Shown: positions 1 to 14,560 of the stretch, piece after piece
How positions within the stretch are numbered: position 1 is the stretch's first letter
How the letters are laid out: each line of letters opens with the position of its first letter
DNA from: a virus
Lineage: Duplodnaviria > Heunggongvirae > Uroviricota > Caudoviricetes
IMG/VR virus record: IMGVR_UViG_2609459844_000001
Coordinates: 1-14,560 of that record
Direction: 5' to 3' (one strand)
DNA: 14,560 nt
Program-made: the position numbers and the translations under genes
Notes under the pieces: model-generated
The model's database searches: none
Seen by the model: the letters and a program-made list of their open reading frames with translations, nothing else
What the model was told of the DNA's origin: nothing

Positions 1-1
1 G

Positions 2-1450
2 AAGGCAGACCTGAGCAAAGGGCAGTACGGCTGTGTCGGCCAGGGCTTACATATTGCCAAAAAACTGCTCCCGTATATCCCGAATAACGCGGGGATCCTG
101 CTGGTACCATGCTGTCGTGGTGGTTCGGCATTCACCAAGGGCGCGGAGGGGACATTCAGTGCGGACGCGGGGGCCAGCCAGGATTCGGCACGCTGGGGTG
201 TGGGTAAACCGTTATATCAGGACCTGATTGCGCGCACTAAAGCTGCATTACAGAAGAACCCGAAAAATGTGTTGCTGGCGGTGTGCTGGATGCAGGGAGA
301 GTTTGACATGAACGCCGCCACCTACGCACAGCAACCTGCGCTGTTTACAGCCATGCTGAAGCAGTTTCGTGCTGACCTCACTGTGTTTAACGCGCAGTGT
401 CATGGTGGTAGTGCTGTAAATGTGCCGTGGATTTGTGGTGACACGACGTATTACTGGAAAAATACATACGCTACCCAGTACGACACCGTGTACGGCGGGT
501 ATAAAAACAGGGAGAGTGAGGGCGTTTATTTTGTGCCCTTCATGACAGACGGTAACGGCGTCAATACCGCCACTAACGCACCGGCAGAAGATCCGGATAT
601 TCCGGCATCAGGATATTACGGTGCGGCATCGAGAACGAATGGAAACCAGGTATCATCAAACCGCCCGACACATTTCAGTTCATGGGCGCGCAGGAGCATT
701 ATTCCGGATCGTATGGCAACCGCTATTCTGAACGCAGCCGGGCGCACCTCAGCTTTCATCAGTGGTAAGGCACCGGAAATCAAACCCTCGCCCGGCGGCA
801 ACACGCCATCGGGGCCGTCTGAAGATGCATCCGTACGCACAATCTCCCTGTTGCCGACAGCCGGAGAGGCTGCTGCGCAGGGCTGGACCATTAAGGACGG
901 CGGAATTCAGTTGTCGGGTGGTGTATTTAAGATCGCCAAGCAGAGCAATAAAACCTGGTCCCTGATGCATCCGGTGGATGACGCAGTCTCCCTGCTGACA
1001 CGGGGTGGCAGACTGAGCTGTAAGTTTCGACTGTCAGGCGCACTGACCAACAACCAGTTCGGCCTGGGAATTTATCTGTATACCGATGTAGCGTTACCTG
1101 ACGTCGTGGCGATGGCCGGGACTGGTAACCCGTTCCTGATGTCGTTCTTCACCCAGACCACAGACGGCAAACTGAATCTGATGCATCACAAGAAAGCAGG
1201 AAACACAAAGTTGGGCGAGTTCGGGAATTACAGTAATGACTGGCAGACGCTGGAACTGGTGTTCACCGCCGGCAGTGCCACGGTTACTCCGAAACTGAAT
1301 GGAGTGGCTGGCCCGGCATTCCAGGTCATAAAAGACAGTCTGACACTGGGGCTGAATGCGCTGACGCTGACGGATATTACCAAAAATGCAGCGTATGGCG
1401 TTGAGATAGAAAGTCTGGTGCTGGAGATAAATGCACCGGCATCATCATAA
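2..1450 (+). CDS. Sialate O-acetylesterase-like protein (NanS-p-like), C-terminal part; the 5' end lies upstream of the window
   Basis: Frame 2 is open from position 2 to the stop at 1448-1450 (I translated 2-200 by hand and found no stops). Contains a W-x-QGE-x-D motif (CWMQGEFD) typical of SASA/SGNH sialate O-acetylesterases. Sits immediately upstream of the holin, as nanS-p does in Stx-type lambdoid phages. Family assignment is from memory, not a search. Confidence 0.6.
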   Translation, partial: KADLSKGQYGCVGQGLHIAKKLLPYIPNNAGILLVPCCRGGSAFTKGAEGTFSADAGASQDSARWGVGKPLYQDLIARTKAALQKNPKNVLLAVCWMQGEFDMNAATYAQQPALFTAMLKQFRADLTVFNAQCHGGSAVNVPWICGDTTYYWKNTYATQYDTVYGGYKNRESEGVYFVPFMTDGNGVNTATNAPAEDPDIPASGYYGAASRTNGNQVSSNRPTHFSSWARRSIIPDRMATAILNAAGRTSAFISGKAPEIKPSPGGNTPSGPSEDASVRTISLLPTAGEAAAQGWTIKDGGIQLSGGVFKIAKQSNKTWSLMHPVDDAVSLLTRGGRLSCKFRLSGALTNNQFGLGIYLYTDVALPDVVAMAGTGNPFLMSFFTQTTDGKLNLMHHKKAGNTKLGEFGNYSNDWQTLELVFTAGSATVTPKLNGVAGPAFQVIKDSLTLGLNALTLTDITKNAAYGVEIESLVLEINAPASS

Positions 1451-1600
1451 AAAGTGAGCCAGTCAAATGGAAGGTATCGTTAAACTCACCGGTAGTGTCA
1501 GTGGGTCGTCTGAGATGCCTGCATGAGTTATCAGAGCCATCAGTACTTAACTGGTGGCTTTTTTTATTGTTGTCAGCTTCCGGATAACGGGAGACGGGGT

Positions 1601-1816
1601 ATGTACCAGATGGAAAAAATCACAACAGGTGTGTCATACACCACGTCAGCGGTGGGAACGGGCTACTGGTTCCTGCAGTTGCTGGACAGGGTTTCCCCGT
1701 CTCAGTGGGCGGCAATAGGCGTGCTGGGGAGTCTGCTGTTTGGGCTGCTGACATATCTGACTAACCTGTATTTCAAAATCAGAGAGGACCGTCGTAAGGC
1801 TGCACGGGGAGAGTAA
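1601..1816 (+). CDS. S: Class II holin (phage 21 S21-type pinholin), 71 aa, with dual-start motif
   Basis: Translation [71 protein letters not shown] closely resembles the S21 pinholin as I recall it (two TM segments, charged C-terminus). Two Met codons at 1601 and 1610 (M-Y-Q-M) give the antiholin/holin dual start; GGGAGACGGGG lies just upstream. The track ORF starts further up at 1523, but that N-terminal extension has no holin-like sequence. Confidence 0.85.
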
Positions 1817-1820
1817 TTCA

Positions 1821-2627
1821 ATGACTCAAAACTATGAACTGATTGTGAAAGGGATCCGCAATTTTGAGAATAAAGTTACGGTAACTTTAGCGTTACGGGA
1901 CAAAAAACGCTTTGACGGTGAAATTTTTGACCTGGACATCTCGCTGGACCGTGTTGAAGGTGCCGCGCTGGAGTTTTATGAGGCAGCAGCCAGAAGGAGC
2001 ATCAGACAGGTCTTCCTGGATGTTGCTGCCGGGTTATGTGAAGGGGATGAGCTGTCGCCGGAAAAGCGCCCCATAATTTTAGAGGCGCAGGATGTGTTGA
2101 TAACCTACAAAGGAAAGCTACCGGGAAGAATTACTGGTTCTCTGAAGATGCCGCCGTCAACACTGCGGTCAGAAAAAGAGGCGTCTTGTCTGCAGTCTGA
2201 GTACTCCATTACGGTTAAAAGTGCCGGAGAGGAAGGAAATAAACGTTATTTTATTGCGTCTGCACCTGATAAAGATCAGGAATGGGAGTGTAACCGGCCA
2301 TCCTTTGTTGTATACGGAGATGGCGGGAAAATAACCATCTCAGAAAATGGGAAATTAACACCGCCATCGCACCAGCATAGTGAGGCGCTCATTGAATTTG
2401 CCATTGATTACCTGAAGAACAATAAAAAGCAGGGGCTGATGAAGCGCATTGGTCGTTGCATGGGATATCTGCAGGTAGCAGCTGAGATTGAAATGATGGC
2501 CAGTGGTGCTGACAATGATGCAGTTGTGCTGGAGGCTCTTCTGCGTGATTTTGATAATACGCCCTTTAAGAAAGCACCTGTTGACTGGATGCAGCCGGGG
2601 ATGACTTATCTGAAAGGGCGTATATAA
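1821..2627 (+). CDS. Hypothetical protein, 268 aa, unknown function (moron inserted between holin and endolysin)
   Basis: Clean 268-codon ORF whose ATG is 4 nt after the holin stop, with a GGGGAGAG Shine-Dalgarno-like sequence inside the holin 3' end (suggests translational coupling). No TM segment or signal peptide by eye. Visibly more AT-rich than flanking phage genes. I recognise no family. Confidence 0.6.
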   Translation: MTQNYELIVKGIRNFENKVTVTLALRDKKRFDGEIFDLDISLDRVEGAALEFYEAAARRSIRQVFLDVAAGLCEGDELSPEKRPIILEAQDVLITYKGKLPGRITGSLKMPPSTLRSEKEASCLQSEYSITVKSAGEEGNKRYFIASAPDKDQEWECNRPSFVVYGDGGKITISENGKLTPPSHQHSEALIEFAIDYLKNNKKQGLMKRIGRCMGYLQVAAEIEMMASGADNDAVVLEALLRDFDNTPFKKAPVDWMQPGMTYLKGRI

Positions 2628-2636
2628 GGTGGCTCG

Positions 2637-2951
2637 TTATCTGTTGCTGGATAATCGACTGAAGATGCGTTCTTTTTGTGTTTTTGCGTAATGATTGTCC
2701 CACTCACAATCAAGGTAGCTTAATTCTTCATTCAACCAGTTATTTATATTGGTCTTAATACGCATAAGCATGGGCTGTGTTAATGCTCTGGCGATAATGC
2801 CGAGAGTCACAGGTGTGAGATGTCCATACGGCTCAGCCTGAATGGATTTTACTGCATCGTGTTCTTGTGGGAGGAGTAAGAGGCACTCTGATTTTACCCG
2901 CTCATTTATGGCTTGCAGGCATAAATCATAATTATGTTGATCGTTATGCAT
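2637..2951 (-). CDS. Hypothetical protein, 104 aa, convergent partner of the 268-aa ORF
   Basis: Minus-strand ORF of 104 codons whose stop is about 10 nt from the stop of the 268-aa gene. AT-rich; no recognisable motif. Filling the gap between two same-strand lysis genes on the opposite strand is typical of an acquired moron. Confidence 0.45.
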   Translation of the reverse strand: MHNDQHNYDLCLQAINERVKSECLLLLPQEHDAVKSIQAEPYGHLTPVTLGIIARALTQPMLMRIKTNINNWLNEELSYLDCEWDNHYAKTQKERIFSRLSSNR

Positions 2952-3079
2952 GGTTAATCCTCTACTGAAATTGTCAGATATATTTCAGCCATCAGGAAAA
3001 ACGCCAGTGTCCTACCGCTGGCGGGCTGAAGATTTAACATATCCAGGGATTCGGAACCGATAAATCCTGATAAATATCC

Positions 3080-3613
3080 ATGAACACCAAAATCAAATAT
3101 GGCCTGTCGGCTGCCGTTCTGGCGTTGATTGCCATCGGTGCGCCTGCGCCTGATATTCTCGACCAGTTTCTGGATGAAAAAGAAGGTAACCACACAACGG
3201 CATACCGTGATGGTGCGGGTATCTGGACCATCTGCCGCGGTGCCACAATGGTGGATGGTAAACCTGTTATTCCGGGCATGAAACTGTCGAAGGAAAAATG
3301 CGACCAGGTTAATGCCATTGAACGGGATAAGGCGCTGGCATGGGTGGAGCGCAATATTAAAGTTCCACTGACCGAACCACAGAAAGCGGGTATAGCGTCA
3401 TTCTGTCCCTATAACATTGGCCCCGGTAAGTGTTTCCCGTCGACGTTTTATAAGCGGCTGAATGCTGGTGACCGCAGGGGAGCGTGTGAGGCGATTCGCT
3501 GGTGGATTAAGGACGGTGGCAGAGACTGCCGTATTCGTTCAAACAACTGCTACGGTCAGGTATCCCGTCGTGACCAGGAGAGCGCGCTGGCGTGCTGGGG
3601 TATCGACAGATAA
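3080..3613 (+). CDS. R: SAR endolysin (phage 21 R21-type lysozyme, T4-lysozyme-like fold)
   Basis: 177 aa. N-terminal Gly/Ala-rich weakly hydrophobic stretch (GLSAAVLALIAIGAPAP) consistent with a signal-anchor-release domain, then an E-x8-D-x5-T catalytic triad (E..GNHTTAYRD..GAGIWT) as in T4 lysozyme-type muramidases. Confidence 0.9.
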   Translation: MNTKIKYGLSAAVLALIAIGAPAPDILDQFLDEKEGNHTTAYRDGAGIWTICRGATMVDGKPVIPGMKLSKEKCDQVNAIERDKALAWVERNIKVPLTEPQKAGIASFCPYNIGPGKCFPSTFYKRLNAGDRRGACEAIRWWIKDGGRDCRIRSNNCYGQVSRRDQESALACWGIDR

Positions 3614-3701
3614 GCAGAATATTTTGCTGAAAAATAAGGCATGGCCACGCGGGCGGATAACACGAAATCCTGCGAACTGGCGAAACGTAAGTGAATAAAA
3701 G

Positions 3702-3745
3702 TAAAAACCCCGTTTGTTGGCAGCAAGCGGGGTTTTGTTTTTATG
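3702..3745 (+). terminator. Putative rho-independent terminator just after the endolysin gene
   Basis: AAAACCCCG ... CGGGGTTTT inverted repeat followed by TTTTGTTTTT on the + strand. The loop is long (about 15 nt), so stability is uncertain. Confidence 0.4.
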
Positions 3746-3807
3746 GCAGTAAGCTATGGGAGGCTGCCTTGATTGATTTTAGCAAACTGATTAGGGAGTT
3801 GCGACTC

Positions 3808-3903
3808 ATGATTAGTCAATTACCAAACTGGAAATTTTTGCTGGTCTGGAGCATCCCTTTTTTATGGGTAGTATCCCAGTTAATTGTGGCAATTAAGGGG
3901 TAG
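3808..3903 (+). CDS. Small hydrophobic peptide, 31 aa (speculative)
   Basis: ATG at 3808 preceded by AGGGAG at 9-nt spacing; translation MISQLPNWKFLLVWSIPFLWVVSQLIVAIKG is a single predicted TM helix. Too short to be confident. Confidence 0.2.
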   Translation: MISQLPNWKFLLVWSIPFLWVVSQLIVAIKG

Positions 3904-3905
3904 CT

Positions 3906-4037
3906 ATGTCAGACAAACTCATAACGCCGGCAAAGGTCCTGTGTGTGATTGTCGGTATTTCATTTTCACTAATGCTGGTTGCTCTTTTTCTGTCCCTCGC
4001 CTGGGTGATGTTGTCTTCGTCGGGGCTGCTGGGGTGA
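3906..4037 (+). CDS. Small membrane peptide, 43 aa (speculative); TM segment resembles the Rz N-terminal TM
   Basis: ATG at 3906 preceded by AAGGGG; translation MSDKLITPAKVLCVIVGISFSLMLVALFLSLAWVMLSSSGLLG. The KVLCVIVGISFSLMLVA stretch resembles [16 protein letters not shown] at the Rz N-terminus (4256). Confidence 0.3.
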   Translation: MSDKLITPAKVLCVIVGISFSLMLVALFLSLAWVMLSSSGLLG

Positions 4038-4156
4038 CAGTGACTGATGACATCAGCAGAGCGCTGGCTTTTGCTATTAAGTGGGTGGCTGTTGGTATTG
4101 CTGTGTCTCCGATGCTATATGGGCTGGCAAAACTGGTCATTGCGCTGAAATCGTGA
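4034..4156 (+). CDS. Small hydrophobic peptide, about 40 aa from a GTG start (speculative); paralogous to the next peptide
   Basis: Translation VTVTDDISRALAFAIKWVAVGIAVSPMLYGLAKLVIALKS. Shares the motif R-A-[LM]-A-F-A-I-[KR]-x-V-A-[VI] with the peptide at 4168-4254. Start codon uncertain. Confidence 0.25.
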   Translation: MTVTDDISRALAFAIKWVAVGIAVSPMLYGLAKLVIALKS

Positions 4157-4167
4157 ACTTTAAAAAG

Positions 4168-4254
4168 ATGAGTGCTGAACTTATTCGGGCAATGGCATTT
4201 GCCATTCGTATTGTGGCCATTGCTGTTCTGGTCTGGGCAATCCGTTGGTGGTGA
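4168..4254 (+). CDS. Small hydrophobic peptide, 28 aa (speculative); paralogous to the preceding peptide
   Basis: ATG at 4168; translation [28 protein letters not shown]. Ends 1 nt before the Rz start. Weak RBS. Confidence 0.25.
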
Positions 4255-4255
4255 T

Positions 4256-4723
4256 ATGAACCGTGTTCTGTGTGTGGTGATTATTGTCATGCTGGTGGCC
4301 TGTGGTGCGCTTAGTCTGGGGCTGAATCATTACCGTGATAACGCCATTACCTACAAAGCCCAGCGCGACAAAAATGTCAGAGAACTGAAGCTGGCGAACG
4401 CGGCAATTACTGACATGCAGATGCGTCAGCGTGATGTTGCTGCGCTCGATGCAAAATACTCGAGGGAATTAGCCGATGCGAGAGCTGAAAATGAAACTCT
4501 TCGCGCTGACGTTGCCGCTGGTCGTAAGCGCCTGCGTATCAACGCCACCTGTCCAGGTCCCGTGCGTGAAGCCACCGGCACCGCCCGCGTGGATAATGCA
4601 ACCGGCCCCCGACTGGCAGACACCGCTGAACGGGATTATTTCACCCTCAGAGAGCGGCTGATGACGATGCACAAGCAACTGGAAGGGGCGCAGGAATATA
4701 TCCGTACTCAGTGCCTGAAATAA
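4256..4723 (+). CDS. Rz: Spanin inner-membrane subunit (i-spanin)
   Basis: 155 aa from the ATG at 4256: N-terminal TM ([21 protein letters not shown]), then a charged coiled-coil-like periplasmic region ([26 protein letters not shown]). Embedded Rz1 in the +1 frame. Track ORF 4172-4723 is the same frame with a non-native N-terminal extension. Confidence 0.85.
4491..4661 (+). CDS. Rz1: Spanin outer-membrane lipoprotein subunit (o-spanin), embedded in Rz
   Basis: [15 protein letters not shown] lipoprotein signal with lipobox V-S-A-C, followed by a proline-rich mature region ([18 protein letters not shown]). Entirely inside Rz in a different frame, the classic Rz/Rz1 arrangement. Confidence 0.8.
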
Positions 4724-5073
4724 GTTTTGTTGATGCGCCGTATCGTCGCTGTATTCCCTCATTAACAGAGACCGCAGCCCGACAGGGAGACTCCTCTGCG
4801 CGAGTGTGCGGGGATAATCAAAAACGATACACACCGGGGTTTACCGCGTTAACGGAGCGCGGCGTTGTCCCCTCATAGTCGCCTGTCCGGTGCGATGGTG
4901 GAAGAAGCCGGATGTTTATCACTATTAATTGATGACACAGAAATGGATTCATTGAATTTCAGCACGTTTTTGTATTCGTGTTATTGAACATCTGTTTATT
5001 TTACTTTTAACATATTGATAATAAAAAGAGCTGTAAATCTTTAGATGAGTCGATTTTGTCCGGGGAAGTTCAA

Positions 5074-5214
5074 ATGGATTTTATGCTGACGGTTTCTGGT
5101 GTGGTTATCCTGTCCATTGCTTATACTGCAGATAAATATGGCTGCCATTTGTTATCACGTATTGGCGCTTATTGTTCGTTGATGCTGATTTTCTCGTCGC
5201 TTTTTTTTGAGTAA
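5074..5214 (+). CDS. Small hydrophobic peptide, 46 aa (speculative)
   Basis: ATG at 5074 preceded by GGGGAAG; translation MDFMLTVSGVVILSIAYTADKYGCHLLSRIGAYCSLMLIFSSLFFE. Lies in a strongly AT-rich spacer. Hand-translated; not in the supplied track. Confidence 0.2.
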   Translation: MDFMLTVSGVVILSIAYTADKYGCHLLSRIGAYCSLMLIFSSLFFE

Positions 5215-5346
5215 GTTATATTAATTATAACAAATAATTTTCTGTGTTATTTTTTCAGGCTATCCCGTCAGAGGGGAAGCCTGTACTGCCAGGGAGCGAA
5301 TGGAAAACTGATGTGTCCGGTAACTGCGTGTTCTGTGAACACCATG

Positions 5347-5532
5347 TTACTTAATTATGTAATTCATACCCGAACTCTCTGTTGACAGCCTTCTTCTGCA
5401 GGCTTCAATAACCCACGCTGAAAAGTTTCCTGAACCTTTCAGATCAAGAGCGATGTTAATTTGTTCAATCATCTGGTTTGGAAATCGGATGTTGCGGGTT
5501 GTTGTTCTGCGGGTTCTGTTCTTTGATGACAT
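5347..5532 (-). CDS. Small Arc/MetJ-like (ribbon-helix-helix) protein, probably DUF3950 family (YlcI/YnfO-like), 61 aa
   Basis: Translation ...TRNIRFPNQMIEQINIALDLKGSGNFSAWVIEACRRRL... has a basic N-terminus, a short beta-strand (NIRFP) and two helices, which is an RHH-like pattern. A similar small gene sits next to cos/terminase on the opposite strand in E. coli lambdoid prophages (recollection, not searched). Confidence 0.5.
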   Translation of the reverse strand: MSSKNRTRRTTTRNIRFPNQMIEQINIALDLKGSGNFSAWVIEACRRRLSTESSGMNYIIK

Positions 5533-5699
5533 AATGTTTCCCCATATTCAGTGTTGCTGATTTGTATTATCAGAAGTTGCTTTTACGTTAATTTGACGCA
5601 GATCAATTAATACGATACCTGCGTCATAATTGATTATTTCTCGTGGTTTGATGGCGTACACACATGTTGTGATAAACCTTATATAGATGATAATAATTA

Positions 5700-5920
5700 T
5701 CATTTCGTGGGTCCTTTCCGGCGATCCGACCGGTTACGGGGCGGCGACCTCGCGGGTTTTCGCTATTTATGAAAATTTTCCGGTTTAAGGCGTTTCCGTT
5801 CTTCTTCGTCATAACTTAATGTTTTTATTTAAAATACCCTCTGAAAAGAAAGGAAACGACAGGTGCTGAAAACGGGCTTTTTGGCCTCTGTCGTTTCCTT
5901 TCTCTGTTTTTGTCCGTGGA
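5700..5920. other. cos: Lambda-type cohesive end site (cosQ-cosN-cosB); 12-nt cohesive end GGGCGGCGACCT at 5738-5749
   Basis: 5738-5749 reads GGGCGGCGACCT, followed by CGCGGGTTTTCGCTATTTATGAAAATTTTCCGG..., which matches the left end of the lambda genome as I remember it. 5711-5737 (GTCCTTTCCGGCGATCCGAC.GGTTACG) matches the lambda right end (cosQ side). cosB R-element repeats include a 15-bp perfect inverted repeat, GAAAGGAAACGACAG at about 5850-5864 and CTGTCGTTTCCTTTC at about 5890-5904. Confidence 0.85.
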
Positions 5921-5927
5921 ATGAACA

Positions 5928-5990
5928 ATGGAAGTCAACAAAAAGCAGCTGGCTGACATTTTCGGCGCGAGTATGGGCGCTGGCCAATGA
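5928..5990 (+). pseudogene. nu1: Terminase small subunit nu1, 5' stub only (16 native codons, then a deletion junction and a stop)
   Basis: ATGGAAGTCAACAAAAAGCAGCTGGCTGACATTTTCGG.GCGAGTAT matches the lambda nu1 start (MEVNKKQLADIFGAS); similarity ends at about 5975 and the frame stops at 5988-5990. Confidence 0.7.
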
Positions 5991-5991
5991 C

Positions 5992-6696
5992 ATGAACTGC
6001 AGCGCAGGTCAGCTGCTTGCCAGTGCCGCCTCCCGGCGTCTGGTCACGCAGACCGCCCGGACAGGCTCCATCGGCGTCAAGGGCAAATACACCATGACCG
6101 GTGAAGCCTTCGATCCGGTTGAGGTGGATATGGGCCGCAGTGCGGCGAACAACATCACGCAGTCCGGCGGCACGGAGTGGAGCAAGCGTGACAAGTCCAC
6201 GTATGACCCGACCGACGATATCGAAGCCTACGCGCTGAACGCCAGCGGCGTGGTGAATATCATTGTGTTTGACCCGAAAGGCTGGGCGCTGTTCCGTTCC
6301 TTCAAAGCCGTCAGGGAGAAGCTGGATACCCGTCGCGGCTCTCATTCCGAACTGGAGACAGCGGTGAAAGACCTGGGCAAAGCGGTGTCTTATAAGGGAA
6401 TGTATGGCGATGTGGCCATCGTCGTGTATTCCGGACAGTACGTGGAAAACGGCGTCAAAAAGAACTTCCTGCCGGACAACACGATGGTGCTGGGTAACAC
6501 TCATGCACGCGGTCTGCGCACCTATGGCTGCATTCAGGATGCGGATGCACAGCGCGAAGGCATTAACGCCTCTGCCCGTTACCCGAAAAACTGGGTGACC
6601 ACCGGCGATCCGGCGCGTGAGTTCACCATGATTCAGTCAGCACCGCTGATGCTGCTGGCTGACCCTGATGAGTTCGTTTCCGTACAACTGGCGTAA
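5992..6696 (+). pseudogene. E: Major capsid protein E, N-terminally truncated (lambda-like sequence from about 6079 to the native stop)
   Basis: From KGKYTMTGEAFDPVEVDMGRS to the C-terminal ...LMLLADPDEFVSVQLA the translation is near-identical to the lambda gpE C-terminal region as I recall it. The sequence upstream of about 6079 is not E-like, and the stub of nu1 lies just upstream in another frame. Track ORF 5863-6696 is the same frame from a GTG. Confidence 0.8.
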
Positions 6697-6737
6697 TCGT
6701 GGCCCTTCTGGGCCATTGTTTCTCTGTGGAGGAGTCC

Positions 6738-7133
6738 ATGACGAAAGATGAACTGATTGCCCGTCTCCGCTCGCTGGGTGAACAACTGAACCGTGATATC
6801 AGCCTGACGGGGACGAAAGAAGAACTGGCGCTCCGTGTGGCAGAGCTGGAAGAAGAGCTTGATGACACGGGCGACACTGCCGGTCAGGATACCCCTCTCA
6901 GCCCGGAAAATGTGCTGACCGGACATGAAAATGAGGTTGTATCAGCGCAGCCGGATACCGTGACTGATACGGCTGATCTGGTCACGGTTGTGGCACTGGT
7001 GACGCTGCATACTGATGCACTTCACGCCACGCGGGATGAGGCTGTGGCATTTGTGCTGCCGGGAACGGCGTTCCGTGTCTCTGCCGGTGTGGCAGCTGAA
7101 ATGACAGAGCGCGGCCTGGCCAGAATGCAATAA
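6738..7133 (+). CDS. FI: DNA-packaging / head assembly protein FI
   Basis: MTKDELIARLRSLGEQLNRD...ERGLARMQ is near-identical to lambda gpFI; 41-nt gap after E, as in lambda. The track ORF starts 13 codons upstream at 6699. Confidence 0.9.
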   Translation: MTKDELIARLRSLGEQLNRDISLTGTKEELALRVAELEEELDDTGDTAGQDTPLSPENVLTGHENEVVSAQPDTVTDTADLVTVVALVTLHTDALHATRDEAVAFVLPGTAFRVSAGVAAEMTERGLARMQ

Positions 7134-7144
7134 CGGGAGGCGCT

Positions 7145-7498
7145 GTGGCTGATTTCGATAACCTGTTCGATGCTGCCATTGCCCGCGCCGATGAAACGAT
7201 ACGCGGGTACATGGGAACGTCAGCCACCATTACATCCGGTGAGCAGTCCGGTGCTGTGATACGTGGTGTTTTTGATGACCCTGAAAATATCAGCTATGCC
7301 GGACAGGGCGTGCGCGTTGAAGGCTCCAGCCCGTCCCTGTTTGTCCGGACTGATGATGTGCGGCAGCTGCGGCGCGGCGACACGCTGACCATCGGTGAGG
7401 AAAACTTCTGGATAGACCGGATTTCGCCGGATGATGGCGGAAGCTGTCATCTCTGGCTTGGGCGGGGCGTACCGCCTGCCGTTAACCGTCGCCGCTGA
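7145..7498 (+). CDS. FII: Head-tail joining protein FII
   Basis: MADFDNLFDAAIARADETIRGYMG...GRGVPPAVNRRR is near-identical to lambda gpFII (117 aa). Confidence 0.9.
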   Translation: MADFDNLFDAAIARADETIRGYMGTSATITSGEQSGAVIRGVFDDPENISYAGQGVRVEGSSPSLFVRTDDVRQLRRGDTLTIGEENFWIDRISPDDGGSCHLWLGRGVPPAVNRRR

Positions 7499-9095
7499 AA
7501 GGGGGATGTATGGCCATAAAAGGTCTTGAGCAGGCCGTTGAAAACCTCAGCCGTATCAGCAGAACGGCGGTGCCCGGTGCCGCCGCAATGGCCATTACCC
7601 GATCATTCGCATTGTCATTCGCTGCTTTAACTGCCTTCGGTGTCGCGGCAAGCGTTTCAGACGTACTGTTTGTCGCACTGCTGAGCTGTACTATCCCCTT
7701 TTTCGTCGTGCTCGCATCCTCAAGCGCCACGGCGGATGCAATATCCTCTGCCCGTTTTGCCGCTGTCTCAGCGCGCGTTGCTGCGGATTCTGCCGTACTT
7801 TTGCTCTGTGCTGCCGCTGTCGCACTGCCAGCAGCCTCTGTCGCCTTTGTGGATGCCGTCGTGGCGCTGCTCTTCGCTGCTGACGCCTGTCTGGTCGCCT
7901 CATCTTTTGAAGCAGACGCCGATGATGCCGATGACGCCGCCGAACTGGCGGACGATGCCGCTGCCGTTTTTGAGGATTCTGCGCTGGTTTCCGACGCTTT
8001 CGCGTTCGTTTCGGATGTCTTCGCTGAGGAAGCAGACCTCGCTGCTGCGCTGGCCTGTTCAGTGGCTTCGCCAGTCTTCGTTGTGGCTGTTGAAGCGGAT
8101 GATGCGGCGCTTTCTGCCGATTTTCCGGCGGCGGTGGCACTGACTGAGGCCTGCCCGGCACTTGTTGATGCGGCACTGGCGGACGACGCAGCCGCTGTTT
8201 TTGAATCTGCCGCAGCTGAGGCACTCTGTCCCGCTGCCGTTTCAGAAGACCTGGCGTTCGTCTCGGACGTTTTGGCCGCCTTCGCAGAATTTGCTGTCGC
8301 CGTTGCCGAGGAAGCTGCGCTGCTGGCGCTCGAGGCTGCGCTCGTTTCTGATGATTTTGCCGCCTCTTTTGAAGCCGACGCATCCCGGGCTGAGGTGGCA
8401 GCTTCTGACGCTTTCGTGGTCGCGGTGGATGCAGAAGTGGCTGCTGATTGTTGTGACGCTGCGGCATTCGTTTCTGACGTTTTCGCCGCAGCGGCACTGG
8501 TGGCCGCCGCGCTTTTTGAGGACTCTGCAGCGGCAGCACTTTTTTCCGCTTCAGTGGCCTTTGTTGATGCCGTTTCTGCGCTGGAAGACGCTGACTGAGC
8601 CGACGACGCGGCCTGTCCGGCTGACGTGCTGGCTGCGCGTGCTGAGCCTGCAGCATCAGTCGCATGGGTTGCCGCCTCACGGGCTGATGTGCTGGCATCG
8701 CCGGCTGACTTCTTCGCGGCTGCCGTGTTCTGTGCCACTGCGGACGCGTTACGCTCCACCTCTTCCACCATCACTTCAAAACGGCGCAGTGCCTCCGGTC
8801 GGACATCATCCTCCGTCATGGCACCGAGAAAATCATTCAGCGTACCTGGTCTGGAACCTTCATAGACGGTAATGGTCCCGGCATGTGAAGGCGGAAAACC
8901 TTCAACCAGCAGGGTGACGCTGTACTGACCATGCTCAACATCCATGCTGTAACGTCCGGCTTCATCCGGATTTTCAGAGGCCACCGTGTTCACCACCACC
9001 GTGCTGCTGGTTCGTCTGGCCTTCAGCACAATGGTGCAGTTCTGTACTGGTTTTCCTGTGCCATCTTTAAGCACGCCAGAAATTTTTACTGTCAT
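7482..9095 (-). CDS. stf: Side tail fiber protein (lambda Stf / prophage StfR-like), N-terminal about 510 aa; 3' end replaced by junction sequence
   Basis: N-terminus MTVKISGVLKDGTGKPVQNCTIVLKARRTSSTVVVNTVASENPDEAGRYSMDVEHGQYSVTLLVEGFPPSHAGTITVYEGSRPGTLNDFL and the following Ala/Ser/Thr-rich repeat region match lambdoid side tail fibers. The last about 30 codons (VMAIAAAPGTAVLL...) are the reverse translation of the Z fragment and FII 3' end, so the distal receptor-binding portion is missing. Confidence 0.8.
   Translation of the reverse strand: MTVKISGVLKDGTGKPVQNCTIVLKARRTSSTVVVNTVASENPDEAGRYSMDVEHGQYSVTLLVEGFPPSHAGTITVYEGSRPGTLNDFLGAMTEDDVRPEALRRFEVMVEEVERNASAVAQNTAAAKKSAGDASTSAREAATHATDAAGSARAASTSAGQAASSAQSASSSAETASTKATEAEKSAAAAESSKSAAATSAAAAKTSETNAAASQQSAATSASTATTKASEAATSARDASASKEAAKSSETSAASSASSAASSATATANSAKAAKTSETNARSSETAAGQSASAAADSKTAAASSASAASTSAGQASVSATAAGKSAESAASSASTATTKTGEATEQASAAARSASSAKTSETNAKASETSAESSKTAAASSASSAASSASSASASKDEATRQASAAKSSATTASTKATEAAGSATAAAQSKSTAESAATRAETAAKRAEDIASAVALEDASTTKKGIVQLSSATNSTSETLAATPKAVKAANDNANDRVMAIAAAPGTAVLLIRLRFSTACSRPFMAIHPPFSGDG
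7510..7597 (+). pseudogene. Z: Tail protein Z, 5' fragment (first 29 codons) ending at a rearrangement junction
   Basis: ATGGCCATAAAAGGTCTTGAGCAGGCCGTTGAAAACCTCAGCCGTATCAGC...GCAATGGCCATTA matches the lambda Z start (MAIKGLEQAVENLSRIS), 11 nt after FII as in lambda. Similarity stops at about 7597, where minus-strand tail-fibre coding sequence begins. Confidence 0.75.
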
Positions 9096-9107
9096 ACTTT
9101 TCCACCA

Positions 9108-9142
9108 ATAAAAAAAGCCCGCAGCAGTGACGCCACGGGCTT
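9108..9142 (-). terminator. Putative rho-independent terminator downstream of lom (minus strand)
   Basis: GCCCG ... CGGGC hairpin (9118-9141) preceded on the + strand by an 8-A run, which is a U-tract after the hairpin on the minus strand. Lies between the lom stop and the stf start. Confidence 0.4.
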
Positions 9143-9246
9143 CAGGACAGTGTAACTTTACGTTTCCTCAAACGCAGTTCACCCCATAAGGTGGATGAAC
9201 CTGCGTATCATAACAATATTTACAGAAGATAAATCGGCGTCTGTTG

Positions 9247-9846
9247 TCAGAAACGGTATCCGATACCAACAATAAATGCATCCGTTCGCCAGTCGCCACT
9301 ACCGGAACCTTCATAAGCAAGGTCAATGGTCACGGATTCGGTCGGATTAAACTGCACGCCAGCCCCCCACGCCAGAGACGTGTTGCTGTGGCGACCGTCA
9401 TCACTTCCGGTCAGCACATCGTGCGTTTTCCCCTTGTTGTCAGTTACGCGGAGATAATCCCCGGAGAAAGTCGAAATACGGCTGTAAGCCACACCCGCCA
9501 TCGCATACGCGCTGAACCATTCATTCACGCGCACAGACGGCCCCGCCATTACGCTGAACCAGCGGTTACGAACGGAATCTTCATGCCAGCGGGTATCGCT
9601 GTAACGGGTCAGCTGGCGATTCTTGTCTCCTGCATAGCTGAATGACGTCACCAGCCCCAGTGTGTCCGTAAACTCATAACGGTATTTCACGTTAATCCCG
9701 TTCAGATCATCACTGCCGGGGACGTTCGTCGAGGCATGAAGATACCCCGCGCTCAGCGTGGACTGATGTTCAGACGCCCATGCAGGCGCACCGGATACGG
9801 CCAGACAAATGGCTGCGGACAAAATTGCTGCACAAACTTTACGCAT
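9247..9846 (-). CDS. lom: Outer membrane protein Lom (Ail/Lom family beta-barrel)
   Basis: 199 aa with signal peptide (MRKVCAAILSAAICLAVSGAPAWA) and C-terminal ...DLAYEGSGSGDWRTDAFIVGIGYRF matching lambda Lom. Position between J and stf as in lambda. Confidence 0.85.
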   Translation of the reverse strand: MRKVCAAILSAAICLAVSGAPAWASEHQSTLSAGYLHASTNVPGSDDLNGINVKYRYEFTDTLGLVTSFSYAGDKNRQLTRYSDTRWHEDSVRNRWFSVMAGPSVRVNEWFSAYAMAGVAYSRISTFSGDYLRVTDNKGKTHDVLTGSDDGRHSNTSLAWGAGVQFNPTESVTIDLAYEGSGSGDWRTDAFIVGIGYRF

Positions 9847-9867
9847 AATTACCTCTCGCTTTTCTGC

Positions 9868-9896
9868 AATAAAAAAGGCGTCACTCCTGACGCCCT
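9868..9896 (-). terminator. Putative rho-independent terminator between J and lom (minus strand)
   Basis: GGCGTCA-CTCC-TGACGCC, a 7-bp perfect stem with a 4-nt loop, flanked by an A-run on one side and a T-rich run on the other. Confidence 0.4.
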
Positions 9897-9916
9897 TTAT
9901 TGGGGTTATAAATATT

Positions 9917-11072
9917 TCAACGAATACTGATGCCGGAAGCGGCTTTTTTGGTCACAATCACCGTACAGTCGGTGATATTGCCTGCCCCCTGATTGCCTTT
10001 CTGGAAAATCTTAAACTCCAGAGTGACGCTACCACCACCACTAGGCATATCAATAACTGCACTGTAACTACCGGGAATGGCCCCTTTAGTTTCTCTGGAT
10101 GCGATTAATACGCCGTTTTTGCGAACTTCAAAACCATAACCCGTGTATCGCGTGCCTCCTGGGTTATTTCCGCTCCCCGGATCGTCATACGCTATACCGT
10201 TAAAAATAATGGGCGGAATAATAATCTGGCGGTCAAAGTTATGATCATCGCTGATGGTGACTGTAACCGTACCGTTTGGTGTTTCCGTGTTACCCCACGT
10301 ACCGACTTTTTTCGGGAAGGCTTTTGATACAGCTTTAACGAAATCCCCTCTGACCTGGGTCGCCTCCAGCATGCCCTTAATCGTACAGTTCTGGTTAATC
10401 TTGACATTGTTGAGCGTTCCTGAGTTCGCATTCACACTGCCACTGATATCCGCATTTTTAGCGGTCAGCTTTCCGTCTGATGTCAGGGAAAATACCGGAG
10501 GACTGCCACCGCTGGTAATGGTGGGGGCCGTCAGGCGCTTCAGGAACACGTCGTTCATGAATATCTGGTTGCCCTGCGCCACAAACATCGGCGTTTCATT
10601 CCCGTTTGCCGGGTCAATAAACGCGATACGGTTAGCGGCAACCAGAAACTGGCTCAGCTTGCCTTCCTCCGTGTCCTCCATTCCTGTCACCCTTTGAGGT
10701 GTTTTCCACCAGTGCCTGTACACCGAAGGTAAAGCGCAGACGGTCGATGTTTGCAGACGTAATGGTGCGGGTGATCGGCGTGTCATATTTCACTTCCGTA
10801 CCCAGCACCGTCTCGGAGCCGGAGGATTCAAACCCCTCCGGCGGTGTCTGCTCCTGCTCACCGGCACGGAACACCACCGTGACACCGGAGATGTTGGTAT
10901 TCCCCTCAGTGTCCAGCACCGGCGTACTGTTCAGCAGCACGCTTTTTAATCCATCCACCGGACCTTCAACCGGCCCTTCGCTGATGGCATCGATCACACT
11001 CAGCAACTGCGTGGACTTCAGGTTGTCCTTCGCTTCGCGCGGGGTATGCCCCTTACTGCTTCCTTTACCCAT
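9917..11072 (-). pseudogene. J: Tail tip / host specificity protein J with a large internal deletion and frameshift
   Basis: ORF 10632-11072 (MGKGSSKGHTPREAKDNLKSTQLLSVIDAISEGPVEGPVDGLK...TSKGDRN) matches the J N-terminus for about 131 aa and then runs out of frame. ORF 9917-10786 matches the J C-terminal receptor-binding region from [29 protein letters not shown]... to the end. The two homology blocks abut at about 10680 in different frames. Confidence 0.8.
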
Positions 11073-11132
11073 TCCTCACGCTCCATAAATGACAAAACCG
11101 CCCGCAGGCGGTTTCACATAAAACATTTTGCA

Positions 11133-11804
11133 TCAGCGACCAATCACCACAACCTGACCACCGTCCCCTTCGTCTGCCGTGCTGATCTCCTGAGAAACCA
11201 CGCGTGACCCCACGCGCATTTCCCCGTACAGAACGGGCAGAACATTGCCCTGGGCAACCATATTATCCAGCGAAGAAAAATAGGTGTTCTGTTTGCCGTT
11301 ATCTGTTGCCTGTGTGCGGGGAGTTCTGGCTTTCGGTGCCAGCATCTGCGCCACACCACCGAGCACCATACTGGCACCGAGAGAAAACAGGATGCCGGTC
11401 ATCCCACCGGCCCCAATGGCTGCCCCCCATGCTGCAAGGGTGACTCCGGCGGTAAAGAATGATCCGGCAATGGCGGCAGCCCCCAGGACAATCTGGAATA
11501 CGCCACCTGACTTGGCCCCGGCGACTCTGGGAACAATATGAATCACAGCGCCATCAGGCAGAGTCTCATGTAACTGCGCCGTTAACCCGGACGTGCTGAC
11601 GTCCCGCCCGGCAATCCGTACCTGATACCAGCCGTCGCTCAGTTTCTGACGAAACGCCGGGAGCTGTGTGGCCAGTGCGCGGATGGCTTCAGCCCCCGTT
11701 TTCACACGAAGGTCGATGCGGCGGCCAAATCGTTGCAAATCCCCGTAAAGGCAGATGCGCGCCATGCCCGGTGACGCCAGAGGGAGTGTGTGCGTCGCTG
11801 CCAT
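11133..11804 (-). CDS. I: Tail tip assembly protein I
   Basis: 223 aa, MAATHTLPLASPGMARICLYGDLQRFGRRIDLRVKTG..., near-identical to lambda gpI; overlaps K by 103 nt and is followed by a 60-nt gap before J, both as in lambda. Confidence 0.9.
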   Translation of the reverse strand: MAATHTLPLASPGMARICLYGDLQRFGRRIDLRVKTGAEAIRALATQLPAFRQKLSDGWYQVRIAGRDVSTSGLTAQLHETLPDGAVIHIVPRVAGAKSGGVFQIVLGAAAIAGSFFTAGVTLAAWGAAIGAGGMTGILFSLGASMVLGGVAQMLAPKARTPRTQATDNGKQNTYFSSLDNMVAQGNVLPVLYGEMRVGSRVVSQEISTADEGDGGQVVVIGR

Positions 11805-12445
11805 TTGTCGGTGTACCTCTCTCGTTTGCTCAGTTGTTCAGGAATATGGTGCAGCAGCTCGCCGTCGCCGCAGTAAATGGCGGCGTGATTCGGCACCGAT
11901 GAACCAAAACAGCACAGCAGCACATCGCCCGGCTGTGCCGCTGACAACGGCACCTGATACAGCCCCGTCGCCTCCAGATTATCCAGATAGAGATTCTGAC
12001 CGTGACGCCACCAGTCATCCTCACGATGAAAGTCCGGCATCTCAATCCCCGCCAGATGATAAGCATCCCGGAACAGTGTGTAACAGTCCGTCACACCGTG
12101 CTCAAAGCGCCGCCCGGTGAGATGCGGCACACAGCGGAACTTATGAATCGTCCCCCGGCAGACCAGCCACCACGGCAAATCACTCTGCACCTGCAGCCGC
12201 CGGTCGGCCTCACTCAGCCAGGGCAGACCACCGGGGTGGCTGTGGACCAGCGCCACAATCTCACCCTGCATTTCTGCCTGCAGCCAGTCTTCCGGCGACA
12301 TACGGAAATACGCCTCCGGCTCACCGGAAATATTCATGCAGGGAAAATATCTTTCCCCCTCCGGCGTTCTCACCACGAAGCCGCACGACTCCGCTGGCGC
12401 ACATCGCCGGGCGTGCGCCAGAATCGCTGATTCTGTCTCTGTCAT
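11702..12445 (-). CDS. K: Tail tip assembly protein K (MPN/JAMM plus NlpC/P60 domains)
   Basis: Contains the JAMM motif H-S-H-x7-S-x2-D (ALVHSHPGGLPWLSEAD) and a C-terminal Cys/His region. The ORF from the ATG at 12445 (MTETESAILAHARR...) is 247 aa. The classical lambda annotation begins 48 codons later (MSPEDW..., at 12301, 199 aa); I prefer the longer start because the MPN fold needs the upstream residues. Confidence 0.85.
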   Translation of the reverse strand: MTETESAILAHARRCAPAESCGFVVRTPEGERYFPCMNISGEPEAYFRMSPEDWLQAEMQGEIVALVHSHPGGLPWLSEADRRLQVQSDLPWWLVCRGTIHKFRCVPHLTGRRFEHGVTDCYTLFRDAYHLAGIEMPDFHREDDWWRHGQNLYLDNLEATGLYQVPLSAAQPGDVLLCCFGSSVPNHAAIYCGDGELLHHIPEQLSKRERYTDKWQRRTHSLWRHRAWRASAFTGICNDLAAASTFV

Positions 12446-12449
12446 GGGA

Positions 12450-13148
12450 TTACTGCGAAAGTTTGTTAATGGAAAGGAAGCCGCCAAAGTTGCCGACGTT
12501 ATTGCGGAACTTACAGCCACCCAGGCATTTGCTGCATTTATCCTTCGTGATATCGGACGTCGGCTGGTCATATTCATCCGCGACAGCCGGACCGCTATAA
12601 CCGCACTCGTCACCGCGATAGGTCCAGGTGCAGGTGTTGGCCAGCATGATACGTCCCGGAAAAACAGCGCCATCCGTTTCCGTCGGCGTGGACAGTACAA
12701 AGGAGGCACTCACCGCGCTCAGTTCGCTGCACTGCTCGATGCGCCAGCGGCTGATCACCTCCTGCTCCGGATCGGCGTCACTGTTTCCGTTGACGAAGTT
12801 CACCGCATCCAGAAAACGGGCGTAAACCTTACGCCGGACCACCGTTCCGCCGACCAGACTCTGCAGATCTTCCGCCATCCCGGTGACCATACCGTACAGG
12901 TTAGAAACCGTCAGCGTGGGGCGCGTACTGGTGCCTTTGCCATTCAGTTCAAAACCGCTCCCCTGAATGGGATACGGCTGATACTGTCGCCCCTGCCAGG
13001 TGACCGGCTCACCTTTTTCGTTCTGCTCATTACAGAAAAAATAACGTTCTCCACCGACCTCTGTCAGGTCGATTTCCCAGAGCACCACGCTGGCCGACTG
13101 CTCCGCACGGGTGCATTCATTCAGTGTTTCCTGCCGGATATCCTGCAT
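12450..13148 (-). CDS. L: Minor tail protein L
   Basis: 232 aa, [72 protein letters not shown]..., matching lambda gpL; 1-nt overlap with M as in lambda. Confidence 0.9.
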   Translation of the reverse strand: MQDIRQETLNECTRAEQSASVVLWEIDLTEVGGERYFFCNEQNEKGEPVTWQGRQYQPYPIQGSGFELNGKGTSTRPTLTVSNLYGMVTGMAEDLQSLVGGTVVRRKVYARFLDAVNFVNGNSDADPEQEVISRWRIEQCSELSAVSASFVLSTPTETDGAVFPGRIMLANTCTWTYRGDECGYSGPAVADEYDQPTSDITKDKCSKCLGGCKFRNNVGNFGGFLSINKLSQ

Positions 13149-13477
13149 CAGTTCACCACCTGTTCAAACTCTGCGCTGAACTCAACACGCAGCATACTGA
13201 CCCGCGACGACCATTTTGCGCAGGTCACCTTTATCTGCCGCCACTCATAAGGCGGCGTCCACAGAAAGGATTTCCAGCCCCCGTGCTCTTCCAGAAACGA
13301 CTCCAGTACCGTGGCCTCCTCACGGGGGACAGAAAGCGTCACGCTGTACGTTTTCAGGTTGGCATTCAGCCCGGCAGGCGCTCGCTGGGAATAGCCATCA
13401 CCAAAGCGCACCTTTCTTACAGAAGGGGCCGAAGCCACATCCATACCGGGTTTCACTTTCCAGCGGAAGGTTTTCAT
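13148..13477 (-). CDS. M: Minor tail protein M
   Basis: 109 aa, [50 protein letters not shown]..., matching lambda gpM. Confidence 0.9.
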
Positions 13478-13815
13478 CGTCCACCTCCGGAGAACAGGCC
13501 ACCATCACGCATCTGTGTCTGAATTTCATCACGGGCACCCTTGCGGGCCATGTCATACACCGCCTTCAGAGCAGCCGGACCTATCTGCCCGTTCGTGCCG
13601 TCGTTGTTAATCACCACATGGTTATTCTGCTCAAACGTCCCGGACGCCTGCGACCGGCTGTCAGCCAGACTGCCCGGTGTCAGGTCTTTAACTTTAGCCA
13701 GACGCGACCAGTCAACGTCTGAAAGCGGGTTCGCATAAGGGTCGCCGCTCCCGTTATAAACCCACAGGGTGGTTCCGGCACCTTTCACCGGTATTGCTGG
13801 ATTTGGTACAGGCAT
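13474..13815 (-). CDS. Chimeric in-frame fusion: major tail protein V N-terminus (about 48 aa) joined to the tape measure protein H C-terminus (about 65 aa)
   Basis: From the ATG at 13815, [48 protein letters not shown] matches the lambda gpV N-terminus and then diverges. The ORF ends with an ATGA overlap onto M, exactly as the lambda H/M junction does, so the 3' part is taken to be the H 3' end. U-to-V spacing (7 nt) is lambda-like. The deletion removed most of V, all of G/T and most of H. Junction at about 13665-13675. Confidence 0.7.
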
Positions 13816-13822
13816 ATCGTCC

Positions 13823-14218
13823 TCACATTTCATAGGTAATGACATAAGTCAGATCGGCAGAACTCCACAGGCCCGCATCATCGTCGCGCCGGTAGTCATA
13901 GCCGCTGGCCACCATACTGGTGATCAAATCTGACAGTGCCGGGACATCGCTCATCACCGGATAAATCCGGGACTCCATCCACGAATCCAGCTCTGAATCC
14001 GGCACCTGAGCAGGCAGGAAAACTTCAATATGCAGCTCCGCCTGCCAGGTATCACTGTCCAGCTCTTCGCCCGTGTATTCAGCGCCGGTGAGATAAACGG
14101 CAATTGCCGGAAAATCCGCCTCATCAAAAACAGCGGGGCGACCATCAAAAAGCGTCGCCCCGGTGTCATGCTTCTCCAGTGCATCCAGTACGGCTGCACG
14201 GAGTTCAGTATGTTTCAT
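13823..14218 (-). CDS. U: Tail tube terminator protein U
   Basis: 131 aa, [67 protein letters not shown]..., near-identical to lambda gpU. Confidence 0.9.
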
Positions 14219-14560
14219 CGCTTTATTACCATTCTCAGTTGATGCTGCAGCGCATAGCCCAGCTCTTTCGGAAGACGTTCACGCCGTATCCGTTCAATAT
14301 TCTGTTTAAACGCCGTGGTAAGCGGCACCGCCATCGGGATTTTCACCACATCAATGGGGTAACGGTTTTTCCCGGCCACACGCTGCATGACATGCCACCG
14401 GCCATTTTTCAGTTGCTGAATAAACGCGCCGGGAATACGACGGTTTCCCACCACAAGCACGCTGCCGCCACCTTTCAGGGATGAACGCTGCCCCTTTTTA
14501 CGACGTCTGCGGCGGGAAAGGACAACCCGCGCGTTACCCAGCTTGATTACGGGCAAATCC
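14215..14560 (-). CDS. Z: Tail protein Z, 3' portion (partial; the ORF continues past the window end towards its 5' side)
   Basis: Minus-strand translation ...[112 protein letters not shown] matches the lambda gpZ C-terminal two-thirds; 4-nt overlap with U as in lambda. Confidence 0.8.
   Translation of the reverse strand, partial: DLPVIKLGNARVVLSRRRRRKKGQRSSLKGGGSVLVVGNRRIPGAFIQQLKNGRWHVMQRVAGKNRYPIDVVKIPMAVPLTTAFKQNIERIRRERLPKELGYALQHQLRMVIKR

Follow-up and report, generated by a model that had tools for sequence, protein, structure and literature searches.

The cryptic prophages of Escherichia coli K-12 (DLP12, Rac and Qin) and the defective lambdoid prophages of O157 have been inactivated by large internal deletions, from which truncated or fused late genes remain. 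In phage lambda itself, the tube domain of the major tail tube protein V occupies residues 3-156 (PMC10721106), and in the tip of the virion the helix formed by residues 818-842 is the sole ordered part of the tape measure protein H, where it is arranged as a trimeric coiled coil within the tip lumen on the gpI tripod (PMC10721106). Herein, a lambda-like late region is described in which the 5' end of V has been joined to the 3' end of H. The window, which denotes the whole stretch of DNA that was analysed, is one complete contig (JNPF01000030.1, 14,560 nt) from the draft E. coli assembly GCA_000703525.1. The fusion reading frame that it harbors is most probably a pseudogene-type scar of decay in a lambda-like, Stx-phage-type prophage of an E. 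coli strain. The features of the locus and of the rearrangements around it are collected in Table 1.

Table 1. Features of the V'-'H fusion ORF, its neighbours and the rearrangement junctions (window coordinates; deletion sizes relative to the AF39 prophage)
Feature	Position	Strand	Remarks
V'-'H fusion ORF	13474..13815	(-)	113 codons + TGA; KDW03374.1 / WP_072003627.1, annotated 'phage tail tube protein'
V-derived part	13681..13815	(-)	major tail tube gene codons 1-45, including native ATG
H-derived part	13474..13678	(-)	last 68 codons of the tape measure gene (lambda H 786-853) + stop
Native V Shine-Dalgarno GAGGA	13820..13824	(-)	4 nt 5' of ATG; read directly off the sequence
ATGA overlap	13474..13477	(-)	fusion ORF stop / M start
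Z 3' part	14215..14560	(-)	cut by contig end
U	13823..14218	(-)	131 aa, intact, immediately upstream of the fusion ORF
M	13148..13477	(-)	109 aa, intact; PF05939 full length; DNA 100% identical to AF39
L	12450..13148	(-)	232 aa, intact; DNA 100% identical to AF39
K	11702..12445	(-)	247 aa, intact; DNA 100% identical to AF39
I	11133..11705	(-)	190-aa gene call, intact; DNA 100% identical to AF39
J remnants	9917..11072	(-)	146-aa and 254-aa ORFs flanking a frameshifting deletion of 2,258 bp
Island of protease/scaffold gene C	5971..6079	(+)	109 bp, between two deletions
Nu1/C junction	5971-5974		4,649 bp; microhomology GTAT; out of frame
C/E junction	6077-6079		1,552 bp; microhomology TCA; in frame
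Z'/stf' inversion junction	7596-7601		TA perfect, 5/6 imperfect
J internal deletion	10680-10681		2,258 bp; microhomology AT; out of frame
V/H deletion junction	13672-13680		3,807 bp; perfect 2-nt microhomology at 13679-13680 (GT on the + strand, AC in the coding sense) within a 9-nt imperfect one; in frame

Anatomy and parentage of the fusion ORF

Read on the minus strand, the fusion ORF extends without interruption from an ATG at 13815 through 113 sense codons to a TGA at 13474, and it takes up the position of V directly downstream of U, its GAGGA motif and its ATG, 8 nt past the U ORF, being placed as those of V. A mechanically called ORF of 123 codons (123 aa), which begins at an ATG at 13845, was rejected; it overlaps U at the 3' end of that gene, and the start native to V, preceded by GAGGA, lies at 13815. 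The initial annotation had described an intact ORF of 113 codons with the native V start and N-terminus and with the native H stop overlapping the M start, and every element of this description holds. Its further statement that the flanking genes are intact stands locally, for U, M, L, K and I, and fails beyond them, where three further deletions and an inversion lie in the contig.

BLASTP comparison with lambda revealed that residues 1-50 of the fusion correspond to V 1-50 (46/50 identical, 92%; E 4e-33), by which the native V N-terminus is retained together with its start codon, and that residues 46-113 correspond to H 786-853 (67/68 identical, 99%; E 4e-45). The assignment of the 3' part to H, which had earlier been deduced from the ATGA overlap with M, is thereby confirmed, the last 65 codons aligning to the C-terminus of the lambda tape measure protein. 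The earlier figure of 65 H codons agrees with the part unique to H, as the tripeptide Thr-Pro-Gly is encoded by both parents.

Only profile positions 1-42 of the 135 in Pfam PF16461 (Phage_TTP_12) are matched by the fusion ORF, and the whole N-terminal tube domain (all 135 positions, corresponding to V 3-156) is not covered, with BLASTP identity to lambda V ending at residue 50. The long helical body of a gpH-type protein (about 850 aa) and the G and G-T chaperone genes preceding it are absent from the locus, in which H 786-853 is the only H sequence present, and the C-terminal tip-docking helix of gpH (H 818-842) and the stop/M-start overlap are both retained. To the predicted peptide of 12 kDa, V contributes no more than the initial 45-48 residues of its 156-residue tube domain, and H its final 68 residues out of 853; since only these parts are kept, the peptide would be able neither to form a tube nor to measure length. 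Judged from its sequence, the product is regarded as non-functional, with J broken and the surrounding block inverted, and would preserve at most the tip-docking helix.

The deletion and its junction

Among complete E. coli genomes, the closest intact relative is the prophage adjoining yecD in E. coli AF39 (NZ_OZ547136.1). This prophage exhibits the late-region layout of Stx phages (L002 8382-13450; L004 5213-5880), in which a Q-like antiterminator is followed by tRNA-Ile-Arg-Arg, a SASA/NanS-type esterase and, next, the lysis genes; its annotation lists no stx genes. The window is 100% identical to the AF39 prophage over 3,001 nt, comprising the 5' end of J, I, K, L, M and the 3' end of H, and 99.8% identical over 889 nt, comprising the 5' end of V, U and Z. 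Exactly 3,807 bp, equal to 1,269 codons, are missing between these two matching segments, namely V from codon 46 onward, G, T, and H through codon 785 (92% of H). The earlier proposal of a deletion that removes the V body, G, G-T and nearly all of H yet keeps the frame is thus borne out against an intact relative. V and H share a reading frame in the AF39 prophage, so the fusion is in frame.

The parents compared at the V/H junction were PhiR11_1 and the AF39 prophage, the flanks being 99.8-100% identical. The V and H parents agree at 7/9 positions of the 9-nt stretch at the join, ACNCCNGGC, which specifies Thr-Pro-Gly in either gene. At the nucleotide level, codons 1-45 (13681-13815) derive from V, the AC of Thr46 is shared by the two parents, and H accounts for all sequence from 13678 downward. 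The join carries the marks of a deletion scar, which are flanks colinear with the intact AF39 prophage, an absence of inserted bases and a short homology. No inverted or direct repeats capable of mediating the inversion or the deletions by homologous recombination were found above 26 nt, and none at the junctions.

Further lesions in the contig

Comparison with the AF39 prophage disclosed five rearrangement junctions in the contig, corresponding to four deletions and one inversion, with perfect microhomologies of 4, 3, 2, 2 and 2 nt and without inserted bases at any of the five. Otherwise the contig diverges from AF39 by about six mismatches in 13.4 kb (0.05%). The genes Nu1, A, W, B, C, D, E and J are broken or absent. 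Terminase, portal and decoration protein have been lost, as have most of the protease/scaffold and part of the capsid protein, and J, V, G, T and H no longer exist in functional form. As J is frameshifted and the terminase, portal and capsid genes have been deleted, neither a tail nor a virion would be possible.

The inversion connects the 5' part of Z, on the plus strand, to the reverse complement of the side tail fibre gene at approximately codon 499, and the block from Z' to the tail fibre gene (7602-14560), including the fusion ORF, is inverted with respect to the lysis and head remnants at 1-7601. The contig stops 141 bp short of the expected end of the inverted block in Z, and the reciprocal inversion junction is therefore not seen. 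Because the block is inverted, late transcription arriving from the lysis/head side would be antisense to the fusion ORF; a consensus scan detected no promoter-like site between the fusion ORF and the contig end.

Several reading frames around these junctions deserve separate mention. A C'-'E ORF of 277 aa (5863-6696, +) constitutes a second frame-preserving scar, which runs via the 109-bp island of C into the capsid gene E and matches both Peptidase_S49 and Phage_cap_E in Pfam; the preceding Nu1/C junction is out of frame. The truncated tail fibre ORF (7482-9095, -; 537 aa) acquires 40 extra codons by reading through the antisense of Z and FII. An ORF of 265 aa at 7801-8598 on the plus strand (L003 5963-6760) has been annotated by the gene caller of the sequence collection antisense to the alanine-rich repeats of the tail fibre, displacing the call of the 537-aa ORF, and the repeat region in question is made up of 21-nt periodic repeats of two families, D1 and D2. 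This 265-aa antisense call is probably spurious.

Occurrence of the junction in other genomes

The initial annotation had suggested looking for the same junction in other strains, and it was found in none of the 5,426 complete E. coli genomes, in which the V and H arms are nowhere adjacent (0/5,426), nor in three contig collections, where the exact 29-nt degenerate junction pattern has no match in the GTDB species genomes, IMG/VR or the JGI metagenomes. The exact protein occurs on a single contig and forms a one-member cluster at 90% identity among about 15 billion proteins, and a homology search of 5.8 billion clusters returned no second protein covering both halves. Recurrence in independent genomes, by which a conserved fusion would be recognised, was thus not observed. 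None of the other four junctions of the contig occurs in these 5,426 complete genomes either; four of the genomes carry another, independent deletion in J.

Other decayed prophages and the breakpoint in H

Similar lesions have been encountered in other decayed lambdoid prophages. One of them (L008) carries a Nu1'-'H fusion (P0002; L008 6001-6447) together with an in-frame fusion of L to the side tail fibre gene (581 aa; L008 6773-8518). A second lineage (L009-L012) is known from four samples, one of them a Logan assembly; here A-W-B has been inverted in place (L009 2468-5852), and a Nu3/C'-'H fusion (P0003; L009 6001-6531) is accompanied by an in-frame J'-'Lom fusion of 340 aa (L009 8909-9931). 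In the complete genome of EC98 (L005, NZ_CM128669.1), the block from terminase A' to stf' is inverted, with the junction at about 9111-9113. Inversions inside decaying lambdoid late operons therefore seem to recur. In view of their different partners, H alleles and hosts, P0002, P0003 and the V'-'H fusion represent independent events.

The H breakpoints of V'-'H (13678-13680), Nu1'-'H (L008) and Nu3/C'-'H (about 6320-6330 in L009) fall within 3 nt of one another, at GG/T/AC/ACCGGGC in H codons 785-786, in a sample that was obtained by protein search with the fusion ORF and sees only in-frame cases with short H remnants. Two more breakpoints are situated 8 and 13 codons upstream, in a fusion of the portal gene B (B'-'H, P0005) and in a fusion of FII (FII'-'H, P0012), respectively. 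H codons 785-786 may accordingly be a hot spot for deletions at GC-rich microhomology. A hairpin as the cause of such a hot spot was looked for at the breakpoint, where the DNA fold of 106 nt gave an unremarkable z of -0.86.

Alternative explanations

Five junctions within 14.5 kb at a divergence of about 0.05% are unusual for slow decay and could reflect either a single complex event or an artefact. According to the former, all five junctions would have arisen from one replication-based template-switching event of the MMBIR type, in which V'-'H is one switch point. The microhomology at each of the five junctions, readable as three forward jumps, a strand switch and two jumps along the inverted strand within a 27-kb prophage, is what such an event would leave, as are the near lack of point divergence from the intact relative and the 109-bp templated island between two jumps; independent prophages, however, show similar lesions singly. 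A single complex event is as plausible a course as stepwise decay, and the proposal that it accounts for all five junctions is entertained here as a minority possibility, at roughly one chance among several.

An artefact of library preparation or assembly, either a template-switch chimera or a mis-joined draft contig standing for a real genome with intact V-G-T-H, is improbable. The window equals one whole contig of a draft assembly, all five of its junctions are unique to it, one of the kept pieces is only 109 bp, and flanks 99.8-100% identical to an intact prophage leave no time for ordinary decay. Chimeras produced in vitro by phi29 polymerase during multiple-displacement amplification typically contain inversions and microhomology, which supports this reading as well. 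Moreover, chimeric C-termini of H do exist in public databases: in the 'tape measure' fragments P0016 and P0104, the Nextera mosaic-end adaptor appears in translated form as EMCIRD or CLLYTS, so that adaptor-mediated chimeras have been deposited as proteins. Against these points, no Nextera or TruSeq adaptor is present in the window, and the junctions carry no inserted bases. From the behaviour of assemblers, an unbranched contig passing through five junctions would imply that reads for the intact alternatives are absent or rare, and random chimeric reads would be a minority. Very similar architectures are present, in addition, in the complete genome EC98 and in the L009-L012 lineage, the latter from four samples, among them an independent Logan assembly. 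That at least 2 nt of microhomology occur at all five junctions, versus a probability of 0.16 (16%) for at least 2 nt per random join in this sequence, also argues for a real structure.

It had further been suggested that the frame was preserved by selection against polarity on M-L-K-I, or else by chance. Under selection, the in-frame deletion would have been retained because translation could still reach the H stop and be coupled through ATGA into M, by which M-L-K-I would stay expressed, and the intact frame, native start, native stop and M-L-K-I ORFs all accord with it. So do the two other decayed prophages that carry in-frame Nu1 or Nu3/C fusions to the same H 3' end followed by an intact M, each of which has a second in-frame fusion (L'-'Stf or J'-'Lom). 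These H-fusion examples, however, came from a protein search, which is blind to out-of-frame cases. Against selection stand the frameshift in J, a gene of the same operon, the loss of the head and terminase genes, and the inversion, by which the block faces away from the side of the late promoter; the fusion is also a singleton whose junction is unique to the contig.

The in-frame outcome was also weighed against the frequency with which it would arise by coincidence. The frame is kept in 2/4 deletions of the contig (C/E and V/H) and lost in the other two (Nu1/C and J). When exact k-mer matches (k = 2 to 8) between different genes of the AF39 late operon (L002 17928-36652) were counted, the share in the same codon phase climbed from 37% at 2 nt through 44% at 4 nt and 51% at 6 nt to 60% at 8 nt, which indicated that the expected same-phase fraction exceeds one third and rises with match length. 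For V and H in particular, 4,162 pairs of 9-mers reach an identity of 7/9 or better, of which 2,091 (50%) share the codon phase, and a homology-guided deletion between V and H would consequently be in frame about half the time. With the deletions ascertained by protein search left out, 3/5 are in frame when this contig is taken together with the other two decayed prophages, a fraction no different from the expected 37-60%. The Thr-Pro-Gly encoded in both parents explains the frame mechanistically, and selection is not needed. Transcriptional polarity in the lambda late operon is in any case weak, as the Q-modified RNA polymerase reads through terminators. Selection against polarity thus goes unsupported and is very unlikely; chance is the reading that the data favour, with an in-frame outcome close to a coin flip.

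Weakest of all, and scarcely credible, is the notion of a decoy, in which the 12-kDa peptide would be produced and would retain the C-terminal H helix that docks on the gpI tripod of the tail tip. Were it true, the peptide, together with the intact M, L, K and I, could fill the tip initiator complexes of another lambdoid phage, whether superinfecting or co-resident, and block tube polymerisation, and the recurrent independent fusions of late genes to H at the same codon would signify retention of a domain rather than a mutational hot spot.

Proposed origin and significance

The preferred reading remains that of a decay scar. One illegitimate recombination event would have removed the 3,807 bp and joined V codon 46 to H codon 786 at ACNCCNGGC, where a short, GC-rich, imperfect homology probably guided the join; as both stretches lie in the same codon phase, the product would have come out in frame. 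The ribosome-binding site and start of V, together with the H stop overlapping the M start, would thereby have been kept. The other three deletions and the inversion would have left the prophage dead, and expression of the fusion ORF from the late promoter is very unlikely.

The fusion ORF provides a further example of lambdoid prophage decay via short-homology deletions, and it illustrates that annotation pipelines name such scars as genes, here as a 'phage tail tube protein'. In-frame deletion scars in this operon are no evidence of selection unless corrected for the 37-60% coincidence of codon phase. Meanwhile, the three independent deletion ends lying within 3 nt in H may mark a deletion hot spot.

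Comparison with known systems

With lambda gpV (NP_040592), the fusion shares the first 45-48 residues, the start codon, the ribosome-binding site and the place right after U, whereas the rest of the N-terminal domain (V 3-156) and the C-terminal Ig-like domain are missing from it. With lambda gpH (NP_040595), it shares the last 68 residues, including the helix 818-842, and a stop that overlaps the M start as in lambda; in contrast, 785 of the 853 residues, which contain the whole length-determining helical region, are lacking, and the G and T genes are gone. The AF39 prophage has the same gene order and is 99.8-100% identical in DNA to each segment that the window retains, but it possesses the full late operon from Nu1 to stf in one orientation, whereas the window is devoid of 4,649 + 1,552 + 2,258 + 3,807 bp and has the Z'-to-stf' block inverted.

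The prophages carrying P0002 and P0003 resemble the present one in that an upstream late gene is fused in frame onto the same H 3' end, with the breakpoint within 3 nt and an intact M next to it, and in that further deletions, and in L009 an inversion as well, lie in the same prophage. They differ in their left partners, in their H alleles (SMADS versus SLADS) and in their hosts, and P0003 is inherited in several samples whereas the V'-'H fusion is a singleton. Altogether, the fusion ORF belongs to a known kind, the scars that deletions leave in lambdoid prophages undergoing decay, and a single draft contig is where it has been seen. The cryptic prophages of K-12 and the defective ones of O157 are old, diverged and fixed in their lineages, whereas the prophage in this contig is nearly identical to its intact relative and has been seen a single time.
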